Virus record (IMG/VR): IMGVR_UViG_3300036859_000155
Span: 1 to 41,268 of that record
Origin: a virus
Taxonomy: Duplodnaviria > Caudoviricetes
DNA length: 41,268 nucleotides
Strand: one strand, 5' to 3'
Part shown: piece by piece, positions 2,685-15,279 of the stretch
Numbering within the stretch: position 1 is the stretch's first letter
How the letters are laid out: the number at the start of each line of letters is the position of its first letter
Made by a program: the position numbers and the translations under genes
The notes under the pieces: generated by a model
The model's database searches: none
What the model was told of the DNA's origin: nothing
Seen by the model: the letters and a program-made list of their open reading frames with translations, nothing else

Positions 2685-3010
2685 TGCCGAAGGTAGAGCG
2701 CGAGTCACGCAGCGCGGTTAGGGTTCGCATCGGTACTGCCGCGAAGATTACCCGTGGGCAGGATCGCCCGGTTCCGCGCGGCGAGACAAGAGCTAACTTC
2801 GGACCTGAGTACCTGCGTTCGGTGGGTTTCACCAGACCAGCCGACCCAACCCAACGTCGCACGGGAGCCGGAAGAACCACTGTAGCCGATCTGGACCGCG
2901 AAATCGCTCGCGCGAAAGCTCTTGGGCGATATGAGGTCGGAAGTTACACCAGTCGCGCCACCACGGCCACCATCAAGGAATCCCAAAGGCGTAGCAAGAG
3001 GCGCGGATAA
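2684..3010 (+). CDS. Basic hypothetical protein
   Basis: TAATG coupling; motif VPRGETRANF. Confidence 0.65.
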   Translation: MPKVERESRSAVRVRIGTAAKITRGQDRPVPRGETRANFGPEYLRSVGFTRPADPTQRRTGAGRTTVADLDREIARAKALGRYEVGSYTSRATTATIKESQRRSKRRG

Positions 3011-3186
3011 TGGCTGCTACCGCTGGTGTCCAGGCGTATGAGGCCAGCCAAAAACTCAGAACGGGAACCCGGAAGCCCGCCACAACCGACGAACCGGGTA
3101 CGATGGTTCCCCGCGGCAAGGTTCGGGCGAACTTCAAGATCGGGAATGTTCCCTCGCCGCAAGTCCCGCGCTATGGCGCGGTTTGA
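3010..3186 (+). CDS. Small basic protein, 58 aa, partial paralog of upstream gene
   Basis: Not in ORF track; TAATG coupling; MAATAGVQ...VPRGKVRANF...RYGAV. Confidence 0.65.
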   Translation: MAATAGVQAYEASQKLRTGTRKPATTDEPGTMVPRGKVRANFKIGNVPSPQVPRYGAV

Positions 3187-3212
3187 CGAAACTTCCGATC
3201 ATCTGATATACT
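3183..3212 (+). promoter_or_regulatory. Sigma70-type promoter of tRNA array
   Basis: TTGACG-18nt-TATACT with TG extension, ~7 nt before the first tRNA. Confidence 0.8.
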
Positions 3213-3219
3213 GATCCCT

Positions 3220-3289
3220 GCGGTGGTTCTCCTGGGAGAGAACCGAGCCTCCAAAACTCGTTCAGTCGGTTCGAATCCGGCCCGCCGTG
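3220..3289 (+). tRNA. tRNA-Trp(CCA)
   Basis: Acceptor gcggtgg/ccgccgt, loop ct-CCA-aa, T-loop ttcgaat; atypical D-arm. Confidence 0.85.
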
Positions 3290-3290
3290 C

Positions 3291-3362
3291 TCACCAGTAG
3301 CTCAACAGCAGAGCGTCCGTCTGATACGCGGGAGGCACCAGGGGCAGCACCTGGTTGGTGAA
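3291..3362 (+). tRNA. tRNA-Ile(GAT)
   Basis: tcaccag/ttggtga, D-stem gctc/gagc, ct-GAT-ac; non-canonical T-loop ggcagca. Confidence 0.8.
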
Positions 3363-3364
3363 CG

Positions 3365-3436
3365 TCAGCAGTGGTGTAATTGGCAGCACAAGAGGCTCTG
3401 AACCTCTTAGTTCGGGTTCGATTCCCGGCTGAGGAT
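3365..3436 (+). tRNA. tRNA-Gln(CTG)
   Basis: agagg-ct-CTG-aa-cctct, T-loop ttcgatt; two acceptor-stem mismatches. Confidence 0.85.
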
Positions 3437-3437
3437 C

Positions 3438-3506
3438 GGCCTTGTGACTTCGGAAGCGGGAGCCTTTCGTAAGGGTTCCAACGCGGTTCGACTCCGCGCT
3501 CGGCCT
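3438..3506 (+). tRNA. tRNA-Thr(CGT), atypical
   Basis: ggagcct-tt-CGT-aa-gggttcc, T-arm cgcgg-ttcgact-ccgcg, minimal D-arm. Confidence 0.7.
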
Positions 3507-3507
3507 C

Positions 3508-3575
3508 GCCAGAGGAGATGGACTCGGAAGTCACTTGTAACGACTTCCTTCTCAGTTCGATTCTGAGTTCTGGCT
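3508..3575 (+). tRNA. tRNA-Thr(TGT), atypical
   Basis: gccagag/ttctggc, ggaagtca-ct-TGT-aa-cgacttcc, T-arm ctcag-ttcgatt-ctgag, minimal D-arm. Confidence 0.7.
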
Positions 3576-3576
3576 C

Positions 3577-3649
3577 TGCGCGTTGGAGGAGAGGTTGCCT
3601 CGGAGGGCTCATAACCCTCAGACGTGGGATCGTCGGCCCACACGCGCTA
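3577..3649 (+). tRNA. tRNA-Met(CAT), initiator-like
   Basis: gaggg-ct-CAT-aa-ccctc (three G-C pairs), 1:72 mismatch; T-loop atcgtcgg. Confidence 0.8.
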
Positions 3650-3650
3650 C

Positions 3651-3734
3651 GGAGGGCTCTGCTGCATGGGCGGCAACCGGCGTCGAATACCGGGGTGGCG
3701 GGAACGCCAGGGGTTCGATTCCTCAGCCTCTCCG
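3651..3734 (+). tRNA. tRNA-Ser(CGA)
   Basis: ccggc-gt-CGA-at-accgg, long variable arm tggcg/cgcca, G discriminator. Confidence 0.85.
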
Positions 3735-3735
3735 C

Positions 3736-3807
3736 TGAGCGTGGCGGGCCTAGTGGCCCAGCAGTTCTTATAAAGCTGCGAGCCGAGTGCGATCCTCGGG
3801 CGCTCTA
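3736..3807 (+). tRNA. tRNA-Ile(TAT)
   Basis: gcagtt-ct-TAT-aa-agctgc, T-arm ccgag/ctcgg, acceptor tgagcgt/gcgctct. Confidence 0.75.
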
Positions 3808-3808
3808 C

Positions 3809-3879
3809 TCTAGGCTCGCCAATTGGCAGGCATGGAGGCTTTGAACCTCCCGATGCTGGTTCGAATCCAGCGCCTAGAA
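3809..3879 (+). tRNA. tRNA-Gln(TTG)
   Basis: Canonical cloverleaf: tctaggc/gcctaga, ggagg-ct-TTG-aa-cctcc. Confidence 0.92.
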
Positions 3880-3880
3880 C

Positions 3881-3950
3881 GCCCTTCGTGCCGGACGCAC
3901 AGGCAGGACTTCTAATCCCGCCAGGCGGAGTTCAACTCTTCGGAGGGGCG
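3881..3950 (+). tRNA. tRNA-Arg(TCT)
   Basis: gcccttc/gaggggc, ct-TCT-aa, T-loop ttcaact, short D-arm. Confidence 0.8.
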
Positions 3951-3951
3951 C

Positions 3952-4024
3952 GTGCGTGTAGCCCAACGGTAGAGGCACCGGCGTCAAGACCCGGCCAGTG
4001 TGGGTTCGAATCCCTCGGCGCACA
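3952..4024 (+). tRNA. tRNA-Leu(CAA), short variable loop
   Basis: gtgcgtg/ggcgcac, tagcccaacggtagaggc D-arm, gt-CAA-ga. Confidence 0.85.
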
Positions 4025-4025
4025 C

Positions 4026-4098
4026 GGGATCGTCGTCCAACGGCTAGGATCGCCGCCTTTTAAGCGGAGTGATGAGGGTTCGAATCCTTCCGGTCCCA
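4026..4098 (+). tRNA. tRNA-Lys(TTT)
   Basis: gggatcg/cggtccc, ccgc-ct-TTT-aa-gcgg, T-loop ttcgaat. Confidence 0.85.
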
Positions 4099-4099
4099 C

Positions 4100-4166
4100 G
4101 ACTGCGAGCCGAGTGTAGACAGGGATTGCAACCCCCTGGACGTGGGCGCGACTCCCACCGCAGTCT
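4100..4166 (+). tRNA. tRNA-Cys(GCA), D-arm degenerate
   Basis: gactgcg/cgcagtc, tt-GCA-ac, U discriminator, T-stem gtggg/cccac. Confidence 0.75.
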
Positions 4167-4167
4167 C

Positions 4168-4233
4168 TCCCTCGGGATAGACCGATGCGGCTCTCCTAAA
4201 GCCGCTGCCCAGGTGCGATTCCTGGCGGGGGAA
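4168..4233 (+). tRNA. tRNA-Arg(CCT), D-arm degenerate
   Basis: tccctcg/cggggga, gcggct-ct-CCT-aa-agccgc, T-stem ccagg/cctgg; only 66 nt. Confidence 0.75.
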
Positions 4234-4279
4234 CATATTATCGCACGGTGCGAGAAATGGGGCACTTGCGAGAAAAGAT

Positions 4280-4353
4280 GTGACCCAACCCAAAGAGTGC
4301 GGGGGGATGGCTGTGAACCATCTCGCTAGTGGGTGCGACTCCCACGGGCCACC
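4280..4353 (+). tRNA. tRNA-His(GTG)
   Basis: gtgaccc/gggccac, gatgg-ct-GTG-aa-ccatc, C discriminator. Confidence 0.75.
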
Positions 4354-4675
4354 AACTAGGCGTGTTCTTCAGCGTGACAGTTCGCACACATAAGAACACA
4401 ATTCTTCAATTCCTGCTCGATTTCTTCCCAGGACTTAGTGTAGGATTCATTGATCCCAAATTTCTTGATTCCGTGATGATGGGCGTGAAGAGCAGCGAGG
4501 CATTTTTTGTATCCACAGCGCAGACATTCCCCACCCAGATATAACACGATCCGCTCTTTGAGGGCACGCCGCTTCTTCTTGAAGTGTTCGCGTTGATACG
4601 CTCTATGAACCGCTGGGTCTTTGTAGGGCATTGGGTTATAAGTATAGCATATAACCCAATAACGGGCCACCCTAG
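4344..4675. mobile_element. Candidate HNH insertion cassette bounded by a direct repeat of the tRNA-His 3' end
   Basis: acgggccacc at 4344-4353 and 4662-4671, each followed closely by ctag; 11-bp inverted repeat 4630-4640/4650-4660. Confidence 0.6.
4356..4631 (-). CDS. HNH endonuclease (start reassigned to MPYKDP)
   Basis: CLRCG...LHAHH...CVLMCANCHAEEH; ATG at 4631 lies 9 nt after TG-c-TATACT. Confidence 0.85.
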   Translation of the reverse strand: MPYKDPAVHRAYQREHFKKKRRALKERIVLYLGGECLRCGYKKCLAALHAHHHGIKKFGINESYTKSWEEIEQELKNCVLMCANCHAEEHA

Positions 4676-4720
4676 AGGGGTACCGCCCCGGCCGCTTGTG
4701 CCGGGTGAGCGGGCTCCTCG

Positions 4721-4756
4721 TTGACTATTATGTCACCCACCTGGTAGAATCTTCCA
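4721..4756 (+). promoter_or_regulatory. Promoter for leaderless gene at 4758
   Basis: TTGACT-18nt-TAGAAT, TG extension, ATG 7 nt downstream. Confidence 0.75.
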
Positions 4757-4757
4757 T

Positions 4758-5189
4758 ATGCCCAATGAGCAGCAGTGGAAGAGCCTTGAAGATGCGGTGC
4801 GCCGGTATGCCGACCTGCTGGGCTTGAAGGATTGGCGCATCGAAGTTATGCGGGAACACCCCAAGGAAGATTCTGACCTCGGAGAGTGTAGAGTCATTTA
4901 CGGGCGGCGGATGGCGCAGATTCTATTCTGCCAGTCCTTTTTCGAAGTTAACCCGGAGGAGCAGCGCAGCACCATCATCCACGAACTACTCCACTGTCAC
5001 TTCGACAGCCCCTTCCAGGAAGCCGCCAAACTCCAGGATCACGTAAATCCCGCCGTATGGCATGTCTTTCATGCCTCATATCACGAGAGAACGGAGCTAG
5101 TGGTGGACACTATCGCCGAGGCGATTGGAAGGTTGATGCCCCTACCGGGGCTAGTGAGTAATGCTTCGCTGTCTTCGGTGAGGGAATGA
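4758..5189 (+). CDS. Zincin-like metallopeptidase (HEXXH)
   Basis: STIIHELLHCH followed by a downstream Glu (ERTE). Confidence 0.7.
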   Translation: MPNEQQWKSLEDAVRRYADLLGLKDWRIEVMREHPKEDSDLGECRVIYGRRMAQILFCQSFFEVNPEEQRSTIIHELLHCHFDSPFQEAAKLQDHVNPAVWHVFHASYHERTELVVDTIAEAIGRLMPLPGLVSNASLSSVRE

Positions 5190-10212: not shown

Positions 10213-13200
10213 TTGGACCCGAACGATCTGAAGGCTATCCTGACGGTAGCCCCCTACTCTAGCCCCGGCGTCGCATACGGGGCCGCTTCTTCGTCGTCCC
10301 CCGTTCGCAACATCGCCGCAGTGACAGCATTTCAGGAGGGCATGTACCTCCGAGATAAACTCTCGCGCCTCGACAACCGCCATCAGTTCTCCGCGTGGGA
10401 GTCCATGAATGAGGCCCAGCACAGCATTCTGCTTCGCATGGGTTACACCCCTCCCCATCTCCTGCCCGACCATCGCGCCTGGTGGCAGAAGACCCTTGGC
10501 GCTATCGGCGGTGGCATCAAGGCGGGTATCACCACCGCAGAGTCGGCCATAGCGGGAGCGGGGGGCGGAATCGCCGTCGGCACCACTCTTGCCGCTCTCG
10601 CGGCTGCTCCCTTTACGGGTGGGCTCTCCCTTGCCGTTGCTGCGGGGTTCGGCGCTGCCGCTGGCGCAGCAGTGGGTGGAGCTTATGGCGCCGCTCGCGG
10701 AATGCACAAGGTAGCGCAGGGCGAGGCGGGATATCTGTCCGGATTCGGTATTCCCTATGAAGACATGAAGCAGGTCTACCGTACCACCAAGTTGCTTGCT
10801 AGGGATGCCTCGGCTGGTAAGAACCTGTGGGACTGGTCGGTAGATGAGTGGGCGAAGAAGTGGCGACAGGCAGGCGACGACATTCCTGACTTTTTTGAAG
10901 ACCCGCATAAGGCGCTAGAAACTATGCGGATCGAGGTTGACCCCGAACAGGTAGACATGGCGGTTGACATGGTGGGCGGTTCAACCGAGTGGGACTTGTA
11001 CGGCAAGTACGGTATCGAAAAGACCCAGGCCGCATTCGGAAACCCGAACTTCGACAAGGCGTTCAAGGCCCTCTCGCAGATTCAGATTTCTCCCGGTCGA
11101 GGGTTGATGCTTGCGCTTGGACTGAAGCCCCTATCGAAGCCTTTCGACTTGCTCTCCGGTTCGATAGACGGCACCCTGGCTTTCTTCGCTGACCCCGGCA
11201 TGCGCGCAGACAAGGGCATCAAGGGAATCCAGGGACTCCGCGCTATGCGCCATGTTGTCAAGGACGCCTCCTCGGTAGACGTGATTATGAAGGGTGCCGC
11301 AGGACGCCGCAAGGCATTCCGTATCGCGCAGCACTTTCAAGAGGGAGGCCGGGGGCTCAACGGAGTCCTGGATGAGATGCCGGAACTGCGTGGTCTGGCC
11401 GACGACCTGCATAAGTACCGTCCCAACACCGCCGAAAAGGTTGTCGAACTTCTGAAGATGAATGCTGGCCTGACGGCGGTTCTGGATGGTCGCTCCGCAA
11501 ATCAGATTGCTCGCCTGACGCACTTGCCCACACTGTCACGCATGAAGCAGTTCCAGGTTGCCGTGCGCCAGGGATGGATCAGGGGATTCGAGAAACTAGA
11601 GAAGGCGACAGCGGAGATTCCCGTTCTAAGTAAGGCCGCCAAGGCTCCTCGCCGTCTGACCTACCTAATTCACGTCGGCACCGAGATTCCCCGCGACAAC
11701 GCTCCTGCGACAGTCGAACGACTGAAGGCGCTGCTCCGCATCGGCACCACGCAGGAGACAGAAGACAAGATCGTGATGGCCTGGTTCGATGCTACTGCCG
11801 CGGGCAAGGAAGACATCGTTGAGGGTGCGATTCGTTCGGCTGAGGCCAGCCTGGGACACAACCGGGAGATTGGTTCATACCTCAGTGAGGTTCTGAACCG
11901 AATCAATCAGGACAGGGCACTTCGTAATGCGGGTATCGCCGGAGACGACCTGTCGTCGGTCAGCATGAAGGGCGCTCGCAGGCGCAACCTGCCGACCACC
12001 GAGAAGGAAATCTCCGGGCCTATCCAGATTCCGAGCTTCCGCGCCATGCTGAAAGCGCATCGAGAGGTTGCCGCGTGGCGGCAGGTGAAAGGAATCCGCA
12101 GCCTGCCCTGGGGCCTGACCGACAGGCTGATTCAGGGCGTGTGGAAGCCGGTCGTGTTGTTGCGTCTAGGATTTCCGCTGCGCGTCGGTGGAGAAGAGGC
12201 CACCCGCGCCATCCTGGAAATCGGTATTGGTCGGTATGCTCGCGCTCGCCTCGCGGGAACGGCCATGAAACGCATGGCTTACCTCGCTAAGAGGCTGAAT
12301 GTCTCGGAATCCGAGGCAACCTTCCTGTCCTGGGTCGCGGATAAGACTTCTACCGCCGTGGGAGGCTTGGCTTATGGCCTAGCGGGAGAGTCCTACATCA
12401 AGGCGGCGAAGACGGCCGCTGAGATGTTCGGCTATGACAAGCTTACTGCTCCAATGATCCGCGCAGGTCGCGACGCCGCAGGTTTCCTGGATCGGGGCGA
12501 GTCGGTGATGGTTCGAATCGCTCGCGGCGATGGTGAATATGACTACGCGCGCATGAACCCCACCAAGCGACGCAAGGGCTACATGCCCGGCGATCAACTC
12601 CACACCTACATCCGCCAGCGCGAACTCGCTTTCCATGTGGACGAGCCCTCCATGCAGATCGTCCTGCGGAACGTGGATGACCGGGAGCGGGGGGTTCGTG
12701 AACTCACCGAGTACCTGGGCCACCAGGATCAGGTAGGACTGCGGGACATCGCCGACCGTTCACGACTGACCGCCTATGGCAAGCGTGTCGGGGTGGACAT
12801 TACGCCGGAGGGGGCGCTGCGCGATTGGGCCGAGCACCTATACGACTCGCAGTATAGCCTCCTCCAGGGTGACATCGGTGTTGTCCAACAGGAGATAGTG
12901 GACTCGCTTCGCAAGGGCATCGTGCCGAGCTACGAAGAACTGGAGAAGCTGGGCGGCGGTGCGGTCTACGGTCAGGAGATGATCCCGGTGAAGTCCTCCT
13001 CGTGGGAGGAGATTGTCAACCGGGGGTTCGGCCCGCTCGAGCGCATCATCAACTGGATCGCCCGCGAGCCTATCTTCATTCACGAGTTGGCCGTGGCGCA
13101 GAATGAACTGCGCCCGATTCTCGGAATGCTCCAGGGCGTCACCGCCGCCGAAGAGAAGAAAGGCTTCCTGGCGAATCCAAAGGTCGTCCCCTCAAAGAAC

Positions 13201-15279
13201 GTGTGGTTCCACGGCAGCAGGCGGGAGTTCGAGCAGTTCGCCACAAAGGGTTACCAGTTCCCTACCGGCCCCGGATTGCGTCGTCACGCCAGCGGTGACG
13301 ACATGAATGCTCTCCTCGGGGCGCACTTCACCGACGAGTACGACGTTGCTGCTGAGTTTGGAAACATAGAAGACATCCGGGGTGCGCGCTTGTCTATCGC
13401 CAGGCCGCGTATCTATCTCTCGGAGAATGCGCTCACGAACGAACTCTATCAATTCGGCAGGGACAGGGGTTATGTCTCCAAGAAGGGAGAAATCCTGCCC
13501 GAGGTTAGCGGTGTTGGTGGTGCTGATTGGAAATTCCAAGAGATGAAGATGCATGGACTCGGGGGTGAACAGAAAGAACGTCTGGCGCGCGAGTTCGTGA
13601 CACATCTGGAGTCCCGTGGATACGATGGCATACTCTACAAGAACGACGTGGAGGGCGGAAACGCCGCTATCGTCTTTCATACCCGCCAGATCAAGTCCCC
13701 CGTCAACCATCTCCCCCTGTTCGACGCTGAGCGGGTGGCCAACGAGCGCGCTGTGGAGTTGGCCTGGCAGAGGATGTATCCCTTCATCCACCGTACCGAG
13801 ATTCGCTCACAGGCAGCGGTGGCGCTGAGGAACTGGATGCCGTTCTACCACGCCCACCAGCAGTGGTTGATCCGTTGGGGCAAGACCTTCCTGCGTACCC
13901 CAACCGCTGCACGCAGAGCGCAACTCTACATGATGGGCCTGCGACACGCGGGCGTGATCCATCGTGACGAGGAGACGGGCGAGGAATACTTCATCTATCC
14001 GATGACCGGCTTCGTCCAGACGGTCTTGGAGAAGGCCGCGAGCACAATCACGGGACGTGACGTGAGTCTTCCGGTTCCGGTTCGACTCACCGGACGGGTC
14101 AAGATGCTCACGCCGGGACTCCACGGCCCGCTGGGTGGCATCGCGCCCTCGTTCGGTCCATTGATGGCCGTCTCGACGCATATGATGAAGGTTCGCTTCC
14201 CTGAGTTCTCCGCCCAGCTAGAAGAGGCAGCAGAGCAGCGCAAGGTTCCCCTGTGGGAACAGCTTGTGCCAACTACCCTTACGCGATTGGTCAAGACCTT
14301 CTTCGCCGATGCCGACAAAGACGCTCAGTTGATGTCGGCCATCAACCAAGCACAACTCTACCTGGAGGCTAACGGTCAGGGACTCAAAGAGAACCCCACG
14401 CCGAATGAGAAAGACGAGTACCAGAGTCGCGTTCAGACCTGGGGGCGTTCATTCCTGCTGCTGCGCGCCATCTATGGATTCGTTGGTCCCGCTGCGCCGC
14501 AGCCCGAGTTTCACGCAAACCTGGCGAAGGACTTTCAGCGTCTCCTGCGAGTCATGCCCTACGAGGATGCGCTCGGTGAGTTCATTCGCCGCAACCCGGA
14601 TGGCACTCCCTGGACAGTCTTCCCCACGGAGAGTCTGACTGACCGCGTGCTGAATCCCGACGCGCAGGTGGGTAAGTGGCTGCGCTCCAATAAGGCGCTT
14701 CTCGGGAAGTACGGTGCTGCTGCTGCTTGGCTGATTCCTCCCACCCAGGACAAGTTCGACTACAATACCTACCTAGAGGAATTCGCTGTCGGCCTGCGCC
14801 GTCGCCGTACACCCGAGGAACTCTGGAAGGCGGTCAAGGTTCGAGTGGCCTCGGAGAAATACTTCCCCGTGCGCGACGAGCGAGACGCGGCTCTGGCCGG
14901 GGCGCAGAACGCCTCCCAGCGCCGATTCATCATGGACGCCTGGGATGCCTGGAAGACCGGGTTCTTCAATACCCACCCCATCTTTGCCGAATATCTGACC
15001 TCCGGTGGCGAACGCGCACGCCAGCGCAACGAGCAGATCGAGAGTGTCAGGCAGATGTTGGTAGACCCCAAAGTCCCCAATGTCTACAAGTCCCCGCTGC
15101 TTCCTGTGCTAGAGGCGTATAATCTGTACCAGCAGGCTGTGGCTGACCTGGGGCGCACCGACGCGGAGCGGAAATACAAGCAGCAAGTTCGCACCGCGCT
15201 GATGGCCTGGGGGGCTTCGCTCGACAACGATGTGTCGAGACAGTTCTTTCGGGCATTGATCCTACCAGACCTGGAGTAA
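10213..15279 (+). CDS. Large internal virion/ejection-type protein with ADP-ribosyltransferase-like insert
   Basis: 1688 aa; N-terminal Gly/Ala hydrophobic hairpin; WFHGS...GAHFTD...GYDGI...IVF...QIKS at ~13198-13698. Confidence 0.75.
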   Translation: MDPNDLKAILTVAPYSSPGVAYGAASSSSPVRNIAAVTAFQEGMYLRDKLSRLDNRHQFSAWESMNEAQHSILLRMGYTPPHLLPDHRAWWQKTLGAIGGGIKAGITTAESAIAGAGGGIAVGTTLAALAAAPFTGGLSLAVAAGFGAAAGAAVGGAYGAARGMHKVAQGEAGYLSGFGIPYEDMKQVYRTTKLLARDASAGKNLWDWSVDEWAKKWRQAGDDIPDFFEDPHKALETMRIEVDPEQVDMAVDMVGGSTEWDLYGKYGIEKTQAAFGNPNFDKAFKALSQIQISPGRGLMLALGLKPLSKPFDLLSGSIDGTLAFFADPGMRADKGIKGIQGLRAMRHVVKDASSVDVIMKGAAGRRKAFRIAQHFQEGGRGLNGVLDEMPELRGLADDLHKYRPNTAEKVVELLKMNAGLTAVLDGRSANQIARLTHLPTLSRMKQFQVAVRQGWIRGFEKLEKATAEIPVLSKAAKAPRRLTYLIHVGTEIPRDNAPATVERLKALLRIGTTQETEDKIVMAWFDATAAGKEDIVEGAIRSAEASLGHNREIGSYLSEVLNRINQDRALRNAGIAGDDLSSVSMKGARRRNLPTTEKEISGPIQIPSFRAMLKAHREVAAWRQVKGIRSLPWGLTDRLIQGVWKPVVLLRLGFPLRVGGEEATRAILEIGIGRYARARLAGTAMKRMAYLAKRLNVSESEATFLSWVADKTSTAVGGLAYGLAGESYIKAAKTAAEMFGYDKLTAPMIRAGRDAAGFLDRGESVMVRIARGDGEYDYARMNPTKRRKGYMPGDQLHTYIRQRELAFHVDEPSMQIVLRNVDDRERGVRELTEYLGHQDQVGLRDIADRSRLTAYGKRVGVDITPEGALRDWAEHLYDSQYSLLQGDIGVVQQEIVDSLRKGIVPSYEELEKLGGGAVYGQEMIPVKSSSWEEIVNRGFGPLERIINWIAREPIFIHELAVAQNELRPILGMLQGVTAAEEKKGFLANPKVVPSKNVWFHGSRREFEQFATKGYQFPTGPGLRRHASGDDMNALLGAHFTDEYDVAAEFGNIEDIRGARLSIARPRIYLSENALTNELYQFGRDRGYVSKKGEILPEVSGVGGADWKFQEMKMHGLGGEQKERLAREFVTHLESRGYDGILYKNDVEGGNAAIVFHTRQIKSPVNHLPLFDAERVANERAVELAWQRMYPFIHRTEIRSQAAVALRNWMPFYHAHQQWLIRWGKTFLRTPTAARRAQLYMMGLRHAGVIHRDEETGEEYFIYPMTGFVQTVLEKAASTITGRDVSLPVPVRLTGRVKMLTPGLHGPLGGIAPSFGPLMAVSTHMMKVRFPEFSAQLEEAAEQRKVPLWEQLVPTTLTRLVKTFFADADKDAQLMSAINQAQLYLEANGQGLKENPTPNEKDEYQSRVQTWGRSFLLLRAIYGFVGPAAPQPEFHANLAKDFQRLLRVMPYEDALGEFIRRNPDGTPWTVFPTESLTDRVLNPDAQVGKWLRSNKALLGKYGAAAAWLIPPTQDKFDYNTYLEEFAVGLRRRRTPEELWKAVKVRVASEKYFPVRDERDAALAGAQNASQRRFIMDAWDAWKTGFFNTHPIFAEYLTSGGERARQRNEQIESVRQMLVDPKVPNVYKSPLLPVLEAYNLYQQAVADLGRTDAERKYKQQVRTALMAWGASLDNDVSRQFFRALILPDLE

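Follow-up and report, generated by a model that had tools for sequence, protein, structure and literature searches.

The 41,268-nt soil phage genome analysed here (IMG/VR record IMGVR_UViG_3300036859_000155, in the following the window) carries an array of tRNA genes separated from each other by almost nothing but a single C. We propose that the spacers of this array have shrunk to C74, the first C of the CCA end, and that one host cut 3' of each C, most likely made by RNase P, matures both neighbours, a host enzyme then adding CA; we assign this reading a probability of roughly 65%. Fourteen plus-strand tRNA genes without encoded CCA occupy positions 3220-4233 at a density of 72.4 nt per tRNA (Table 1). 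At 12 of the 13 junctions a lone C stands between the discriminator base and position 1 of the next gene, the Ile-Gln junction being CG, and a C directly follows the last chain gene, Arg(CCU). C is present at position 74 in 14/14 chain genes (p = 4.5e-8 given the local base frequency). An earlier note made from the sequence alone had described these 14 head-to-tail genes, the 12 single-C positions, the CG exception and a promoter ahead of the array. The junctions agree base for base, the genes are borne out by hand reading and by an independent covariance model, and a consensus promoter match is present. A 15th gene, His(GUG), is added, which was overlooked by the earlier note, by default ARAGORN and by Rfam.

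The gene ends were first set by hand reading of the cloverleaves. Standard tools find only part of the array, with ARAGORN reporting 10 genes at default settings and Rfam four at the gathering cut-off, or five with the tRNA model and two with the Sec model in E-value mode. A covariance model trained on 32 other phage and metagenome tRNAs, none from the window, reproduced the hand-set ends exactly for 13/14 genes, leaving the spacers as had been claimed, recovered the His gene and found no further full-length plus-strand tRNA gene in the rest of the window. Ser(CGA) is matched by this model at the T-arm only; its ends follow from the Rfam Sec alignment, which spans 3651-3733, with G3734 added, and our cloverleaf parser offers an alternative Ser register with the spacer GC. 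ARAGORN starts Thr(CGU) 4 nt further upstream than the hand reading. The parser resolves 13 cloverleaves in the real region, compared to 0 in 49/50 and 1 in 1/50 dinucleotide shuffles. The tRNA-Met(CAU) shows a 1:72 mismatch and three G-C pairs beside the anticodon loop, which we take to be initiator features.

We read the junction C as position 74 belonging to the upstream gene, because the tRNA cassettes of cluster BF podoviruses keep a C after the discriminator base whatever the spacer length. These phages (Beephvirinae: Stella, FlowerPower, Manuel, Percastrophe) have genomes of ~46 kb in which a single segment contains 16-21 tRNAs (PMC9753666). Seven BF cassettes with spacers of 1 to >200 nt show C74 in 98/106 CCA-less genes, and the window discriminators are mostly those of the BF cognates, though not in the two Gln genes. 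In these cassettes (L001, L004-L009) the main exception to C74 is a T that usually follows the initiator tRNA-Met. For cellular genomes we took the 30 best tRNA loci per genome, parsed their CCA-less genes and found C74 in 25/25 genes of Streptomyces alanosinicus (shortest spacer 4 nt), in 18/18 of an Actinomycetota metagenome-assembled genome (MAG; 21 nt) and in 21/21 of an Acidimicrobiia MAG (6 nt), i.e. in 64/64 sampled actinobacterial genes. Algoriphagus (Bacteroidota) shows C74 in 30/30 CCA-less genes. The rule is not an artefact of the parser, since the control Lyngbya gives 5/29; a genome titled B. subtilis (G011) was left out as control, as it has 66% GC in its loci and CCA in 31/32 genes and looks mislabelled. 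A C at position 74 is thus customary in some lineages; it is a host-lineage trait and not a phage invention, and the idea that the C serves as phage punctuation is not supported. The window array would be what remains once all other spacer bases are deleted.

We asked how common such joints are by pattern scans, which demand canonical T-loops and therefore give lower bounds. Among viral loci, the one-base-junction pattern gave 124 matches in 120 loci (C 85, T 20, A 16, G 3), some of which are due to chance. Chance matches occurred in the wider scans as well and were sorted out by parsing. A complete scan of viral contigs for long runs returned 47 stretches, 11 loci with at least three one-C junctions and one strict array (G001), encoding WhiB and showing one-C at 22/31 junctions and C74 in 32/32 genes. 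The G001 array (L257/L539) is interrupted by HNH- and LAGLIDADG-like open reading frames (ORFs), and an RNA ligase gene lies downstream. The metagenome scan (24/64 parts, 119 loci) revealed a minus-strand array of 41 tRNAs (L598, 1064-4334) forming a near-complete set with one-C at 35/40 junctions, 23 of them in a row, and a shorter array (L653) with one-C at 7/7 junctions. The 41-tRNA array adjoins PTH2 and HNH genes, and a separate tRNA with CUA anticodon lies at 593-665 of the same contig. Between the window and the one-C arrays elsewhere, matches are short and confined to the tRNA level, and among cellular genomes 0/120 loci had two or more one-C junctions in the 2/64 parts scanned. Single one-C joints are therefore routine, as also seen in T4 Gln-Leu and in 6/21 junctions of Stella, whereas whole one-C chains are rare but recurrent. 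Neither one-C tRNA arrays nor the actinobacterial C74 rule were found in the literature searched, of which few subscription papers formed part; the supplements of PMC10673834 and PMC8421152 may tabulate C74 or spacers.

In the proposed model, a single transcript would start from the promoter match at 3183, at or one base before tRNA-Trp. Because one base separates the genes, the bond following each upstream C74 is at the same time the RNase P site of the next tRNA. A cut just 3' of each C would generate the mature downstream 5' end together with an upstream N73-C74 end, to which the host CCA-adding enzyme would need to add only CA. Release would presumably proceed stepwise from 3' to 5' by cut, CA addition and next cut, as in T4 Pro-Ser, each round restoring the CCA handle preferred by RNase P, and the published after-C74 endonuclease activity may help, its target being the same bond. 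The short exception in the strict viral array, a Glu-CG-His junction being its only one, can be read as C74 plus G-1 of tRNA-His, which fits the stepwise model. Observed are the gene layout, C74 in genes of the host lineage and the lack of a match to CCA-adding enzyme, RNase Z and RNase P families (66 ORFs searched against Pfam and PHROGs, 24 against NCBIfam); since a phage-encoded processing enzyme was not found, we infer the processing enzymes to be those of the host. On the plus strand, the two promoter matches with an intact TTGAC and an 18-nt spacer (TTGACN-18-TANNNT, at 3183 and 4721) both stop 7 nt short of a functional first base, which is Trp G1 (3220) in one case and an ATG (4758) without evident ribosome-binding site in the other. 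This hints that both the tRNA and the mRNA are leaderless, and the first tRNA may have a leader of 0-1 nt.

Published work on related substrates offers precedents. Three host enzymes (BN nuclease, nucleotidyltransferase, RNase P) mature the T4 dimeric precursors, and cleavage is favoured when the 3' tRNA carries CCA (PMC11143913); E. coli RNase P walks along tRNA polycistrons from 3' to 5' (PMC11143913; PMC4176162). RNase P RNA base-pairs with C74, and in B. subtilis cleavage is over 100-fold slower when position 74 is a G (PMC1874595). Directly linked synthetic tRNAs are separated by RNase P (PMC12381190), and standard RNase Z is inhibited by C74 (PMC3161902, PMC7479834). The T4 precursors and the linked synthetic tRNAs support the earlier proposal that one cut frees an N73-C74 end requiring only CA; RNase P as the sole candidate does not stand, given an actinobacterial endonuclease activity cutting the same bond. 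The basic chemistry is not new, having been described for T4 dimers in the 1970s. A Synechocystis RNase Z reportedly shifts its cut past C74, which we do not use as evidence.

Several observations weigh against the proposed mechanism or parts of it. With respect to the genes themselves, 5/15 score below 26 bits with the covariance model, most genes of other arrays reaching 40-75 bits, and several have odd T-loops or mismatched stems. Position -1 in BF genes is mostly U (69/121) with C in 36/121. In Ser and Arg(UCU), the C at -1 has a possible pairing partner in G73, and such C-1:G73 pairing brings a risk of miscleavage by RNase P. At the window junctions RNase P would be offered C74 only, with neither C75 nor a single-stranded leader, and its binding mode is called open in PMC11143913; moreover, cutting of the linked synthetic tRNAs, whose CCA was complete, seemed less efficient than that of the ribozyme design (PMC12381190). 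Many window ORFs have no family, so a phage processing enzyme may exist among them. The C74 rule alone does not name the host, because the Bacteroidota genome follows it as well. Finally, the 3' cuts after C74 in S. coelicolor (PMC4681348) bring in a second candidate enzyme.

This second enzyme forms the basis of the strongest alternative, according to which the host 3'-end endonuclease cutting after C74 is the main cutter, producing both ends per cut, with RNase P being largely dispensable, even more so if tRNA-Trp is leaderless. Actinobacterial nuclease activity cutting after C74 is described in two RNA-sequencing studies (PMC4681348, PMC3848588). Table S4 of the S. coelicolor study lists the 3' cut directly after a C in 43/44 tRNAs, this C being position 74 in 39 rows by our reading of the notation with four 'CCAc' rows ambiguous; the emphasis of that study is solely on cuts within encoded CCA (PMC4681348). 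In P. acnes, cuts fall between the Cs and no obvious RNase Z is reported (PMC3848588). Human mitochondrial RNase Z likewise makes the 5' end of Ser(AGY) (PMC3790967). Where the spacer ahead of tRNA-His is short, it usually has two bases (47 unique junctions from viral and metagenome loci, many from related phages: CT 24, CG 8, lone C 1), as if tRNA-His kept its own -1 base, U-1 or G-1, and the promoter-Trp gap equals that ahead of the ATG. All this is set against RNase P being essential, present and able to cut T4 dimers and linked synthetic tRNAs, against RNase Z-type enzymes being described as poor on 5'-extended precursors and against the trailer, which would here be a paired acceptor stem; the leaderless Trp start in turn derives from a promoter consensus match. 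As the after-C74 nuclease and RNase P share one bond, sequence alone cannot separate the two enzymes; weighing the above, we consider the nuclease unlikely to be the main cutter. We tentatively extend this alternative, at similarly low odds, to one-C arrays as an RNase P-independent tRNA supply, in which the first tRNA would be leaderless and the after-C74 endonuclease would cut every junction. If this were true, the C74 rule in Actinomycetota and Bacteroidota would be the sign of a third way in which bacteria mature tRNA 3' ends, one that phages exploit to fit as many as 40 tRNAs together by joints of a single base.

It appears very improbable that we are dealing with the copy of a compact cassette which is in decay or used only in part, its spacing being inherited and several genes yielding no working tRNA. 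The mismatched acceptor stems of Gln(CUG) and Thr(CGU) (5/7 pairs each) and also of Ser, Leu and His, the sole CG junction directly preceding the damaged Gln stem, the His gene lacking C74 and the low covariance-model scores of several genes would agree with decay, but anticodon arms and order are kept in all 15 genes and C74 in 14/14 chain genes, conservation of the short D-arm forms extends to cultured BF phages, and the promoter match is undamaged. Least probable of all are two cuts per junction, with RNase Z cutting after N73, RNase P trimming the lone C as a leader and all three bases of CCA added anew. Textbooks give this route for bacterial tRNAs lacking CCA, S. alanosinicus possesses an RNase Z-like gene of full length that scores 279.7 bits (cut-off 293), and S. 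coelicolor shows a cut after N73 also in 2/44 rows (PMC4681348), but the route leaves the constant C unexplained, C74 is the strongest RNase Z antideterminant (PMC3161902), and the two actinobacterial MAGs following the C74 rule, both possibly incomplete, have only weak RNase Z matches.

Under the single-cut model, the window array would work like the tight tRNA precursors of T4, the maturation itself being carried over by analogy. The T4 Gln-Leu spacer is exactly one C after the discriminator, with an upstream gene lacking CCA but having C74, as throughout the window chain; the Pro-Ser spacer is CT. This Gln-Leu pair is said to be a characterised dimeric precursor. The dimers named in PMC11143913 are Pro-Ser and Thr-Ile, and T4 dimers lie less than 5 nt apart (PMC11143913), a distance to which the 12 one-nt and one two-nt spacers of the window conform. 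The difference is one of extent, since T4 has a one-C junction at one of seven positions and encodes CCA in 4/8 genes, compared to 12/13 and none in the window. In E. coli valU and lysT, RNase P alone separates the tRNAs singly from the 3' end (PMC4176162), but every gene encodes CCA and spacers range from 2 to 209 nt (PMC11143913). In the synthetic 'tRNA array' (Nat Commun 2025, PMC12381190), tRNAs are likewise directly linked and one RNase P cut makes both ends; it is engineered, consists of full-length tRNAs and was processed in vitro, whereas the window chain is natural, has C74 only and would need the CCA-adding enzyme. The likeness to mitochondrial tRNA punctuation raised by the earlier note is an analogy only: abutting genes are freed by tRNA-end nucleases there as well, and one enzyme can make two ends, as at His-Ser(AGY) (PMC3790967), but mitochondrial punctuation frees mRNAs and rRNAs via RNase P and RNase Z (PMC3790967), whereas 3220-4233 holds tRNA genes only and C74 is retained. 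Bacterial L-arrays comprise up to 43 tRNA genes (PMC8421152); intergenic distance is treated in that paper, and in the text available of it no one-C rule was seen.

The window looks like a complete phage genome, having a 127-nt end overlap and 41.1 kb besides. The one sequencing run in which its DNA was found, possibly its source, covers it by a single contig (depth 54, 0 differences), and no RNA run containing it was found. Family searches identify terminase, portal, capsid, amidase, holin and WhiB genes. Its host is likely actinobacterial, because it encodes WhiB and a Leu(CAA) with short variable arm and its terminase and portal share ~26% identity with those of Streptomyces phage Stella (cluster BF); S. 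coelicolor likewise has a type I tRNA-Leu(CAA) with short variable arm (PMC6614811). As in BF cassettes, C74 is nearly always present, short D-arm Cys, Trp and Arg(CCU) and one-C junctions occur, and one cassette holds all 15 genes, the BF range being about 15-22. BF differs in its spacers of 1 to >200 nt, in anticodon set and order and in genome position, the cassette lying before terminase in the window and before the capsid region in Stella. Neither BF gene content nor cassette synteny is found in the window, and queries with the window capsid, WhiB, Cas4 and DUF932 gave no match in Stella. BF genomes are 44.9-46.5 kb with a short terminal repeat (PMC13097060). On gene content and synteny we regard the window phage as not being a member of the Beephvirinae. 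Nine terminase relatives with 38-62% identity are known as proteins only, and terminase searches of viral contigs and metagenome contigs gave no close relative with DNA context. OX376640, a distant terminase match, contains no tRNA by ARAGORN, and the window terminase has no alignment in five array-bearing virus records.

The window array represents a limit case of tRNA gene packing. The earlier note saw in it a very compact tRNA supply for a 41-kb phage, but sets of 16-21 tRNAs are carried by 46-kb BF phages as well. At a one-C joint the RNase P bond and the after-C74 nuclease bond coincide, and junction variants can therefore separate the enzymes, making the chain a good test substrate for tRNA processing. 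For the design of compact synthetic tRNA cassettes, too, it offers a natural model.

Table 1. Promoter match, tRNA genes and adjoining features of the array region in the window.
Feature	Position	Strand	Details	Basis
Sigma-70-type promoter match	3183..3212	+	TTGACG-18-TATACT, TG extension; -10 end 7 nt before Trp G1	Consensus match; putative function
tRNA-Trp(CCA)	3220..3289	+	G73; C74 = 3290	ARAGORN, hand reading, covariance model
tRNA-Ile(GAU)	3291..3362	+	A73; atypical T-loop; followed by CG 3363-3364	Rfam E-value mode, hand reading, covariance model
tRNA-Gln(CUG)	3365..3436	+	Acceptor stem 5/7 pairs; C74 = 3437	Rfam, hand reading, covariance model
tRNA-Thr(CGU)	3438..3506	+	Acceptor stem 5/7 pairs; short D-arm; C74 = 3507	Hand reading, parser, covariance model
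tRNA-Thr(UGU)	3508..3575	+	Short D-arm; C74 = 3576	Hand reading, parser, covariance model
tRNA-Met(CAU)	3577..3649	+	Initiator-type; C74 = 3650	Hand reading, covariance model
tRNA-Ser(CGA)	3651..3734	+	Long variable arm; G73; C74 = 3735	Rfam Sec alignment, hand reading
tRNA-Ile(UAU)	3736..3807	+	C74 = 3808	ARAGORN, covariance model
tRNA-Gln(UUG)	3809..3879	+	C74 = 3880	ARAGORN, Rfam E-value mode, covariance model
tRNA-Arg(UCU)	3881..3950	+	G73; C74 = 3951	ARAGORN, covariance model
tRNA-Leu(CAA)	3952..4024	+	Short variable arm; C74 = 4025	Rfam, covariance model
tRNA-Lys(UUU)	4026..4098	+	C74 = 4099	ARAGORN, Rfam, covariance model
tRNA-Cys(GCA)	4100..4166	+	U73; short D-arm; C74 = 4167	Hand reading, parser, covariance model
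tRNA-Arg(CCU)	4168..4233	+	Short D-arm; C74 = 4234	Parser, covariance model
Arg-His spacer	4234..4279	+	46 nt; hairpin z -3.4 (0/200 shuffles as stable)	Shuffle folding
tRNA-His(GUG), 15th gene	4280..4353	+	C73; U at -1; followed by A, no C74	Parser, covariance model
HNH endonuclease ORF	4356..4670	-	Adjoins the array	Family search

A perfect TTGACA-18-TATAAT match on the minus strand (5254-5225) faces the HNH ORF and, beyond it, runs antisense to the array. No match to an intrinsic terminator was obtained within 2900-4900, and the hairpin 3' of the His gene is not significant (z -1.15). Codon supply for the phage's own genes was considered as the main purpose of the array and rejected, seven anticodons reading codons with 6-24% within-family use; resistance of phages to anticodon nucleases by their own tRNAs is an idea put forward in PMC10264068. 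Elsewhere in the window, ORF 125-880 is tyrosine/dual-specificity phosphatase-like, with PF22784 below the cut-off and archaeal protein tyrosine phosphatases as PDB matches, ORF 4758-5189 resembles an unnamed viral family, and ORF 10213-15279, encoding 1688 aa, contains an ART-PolyVal domain at residues 997-1166.

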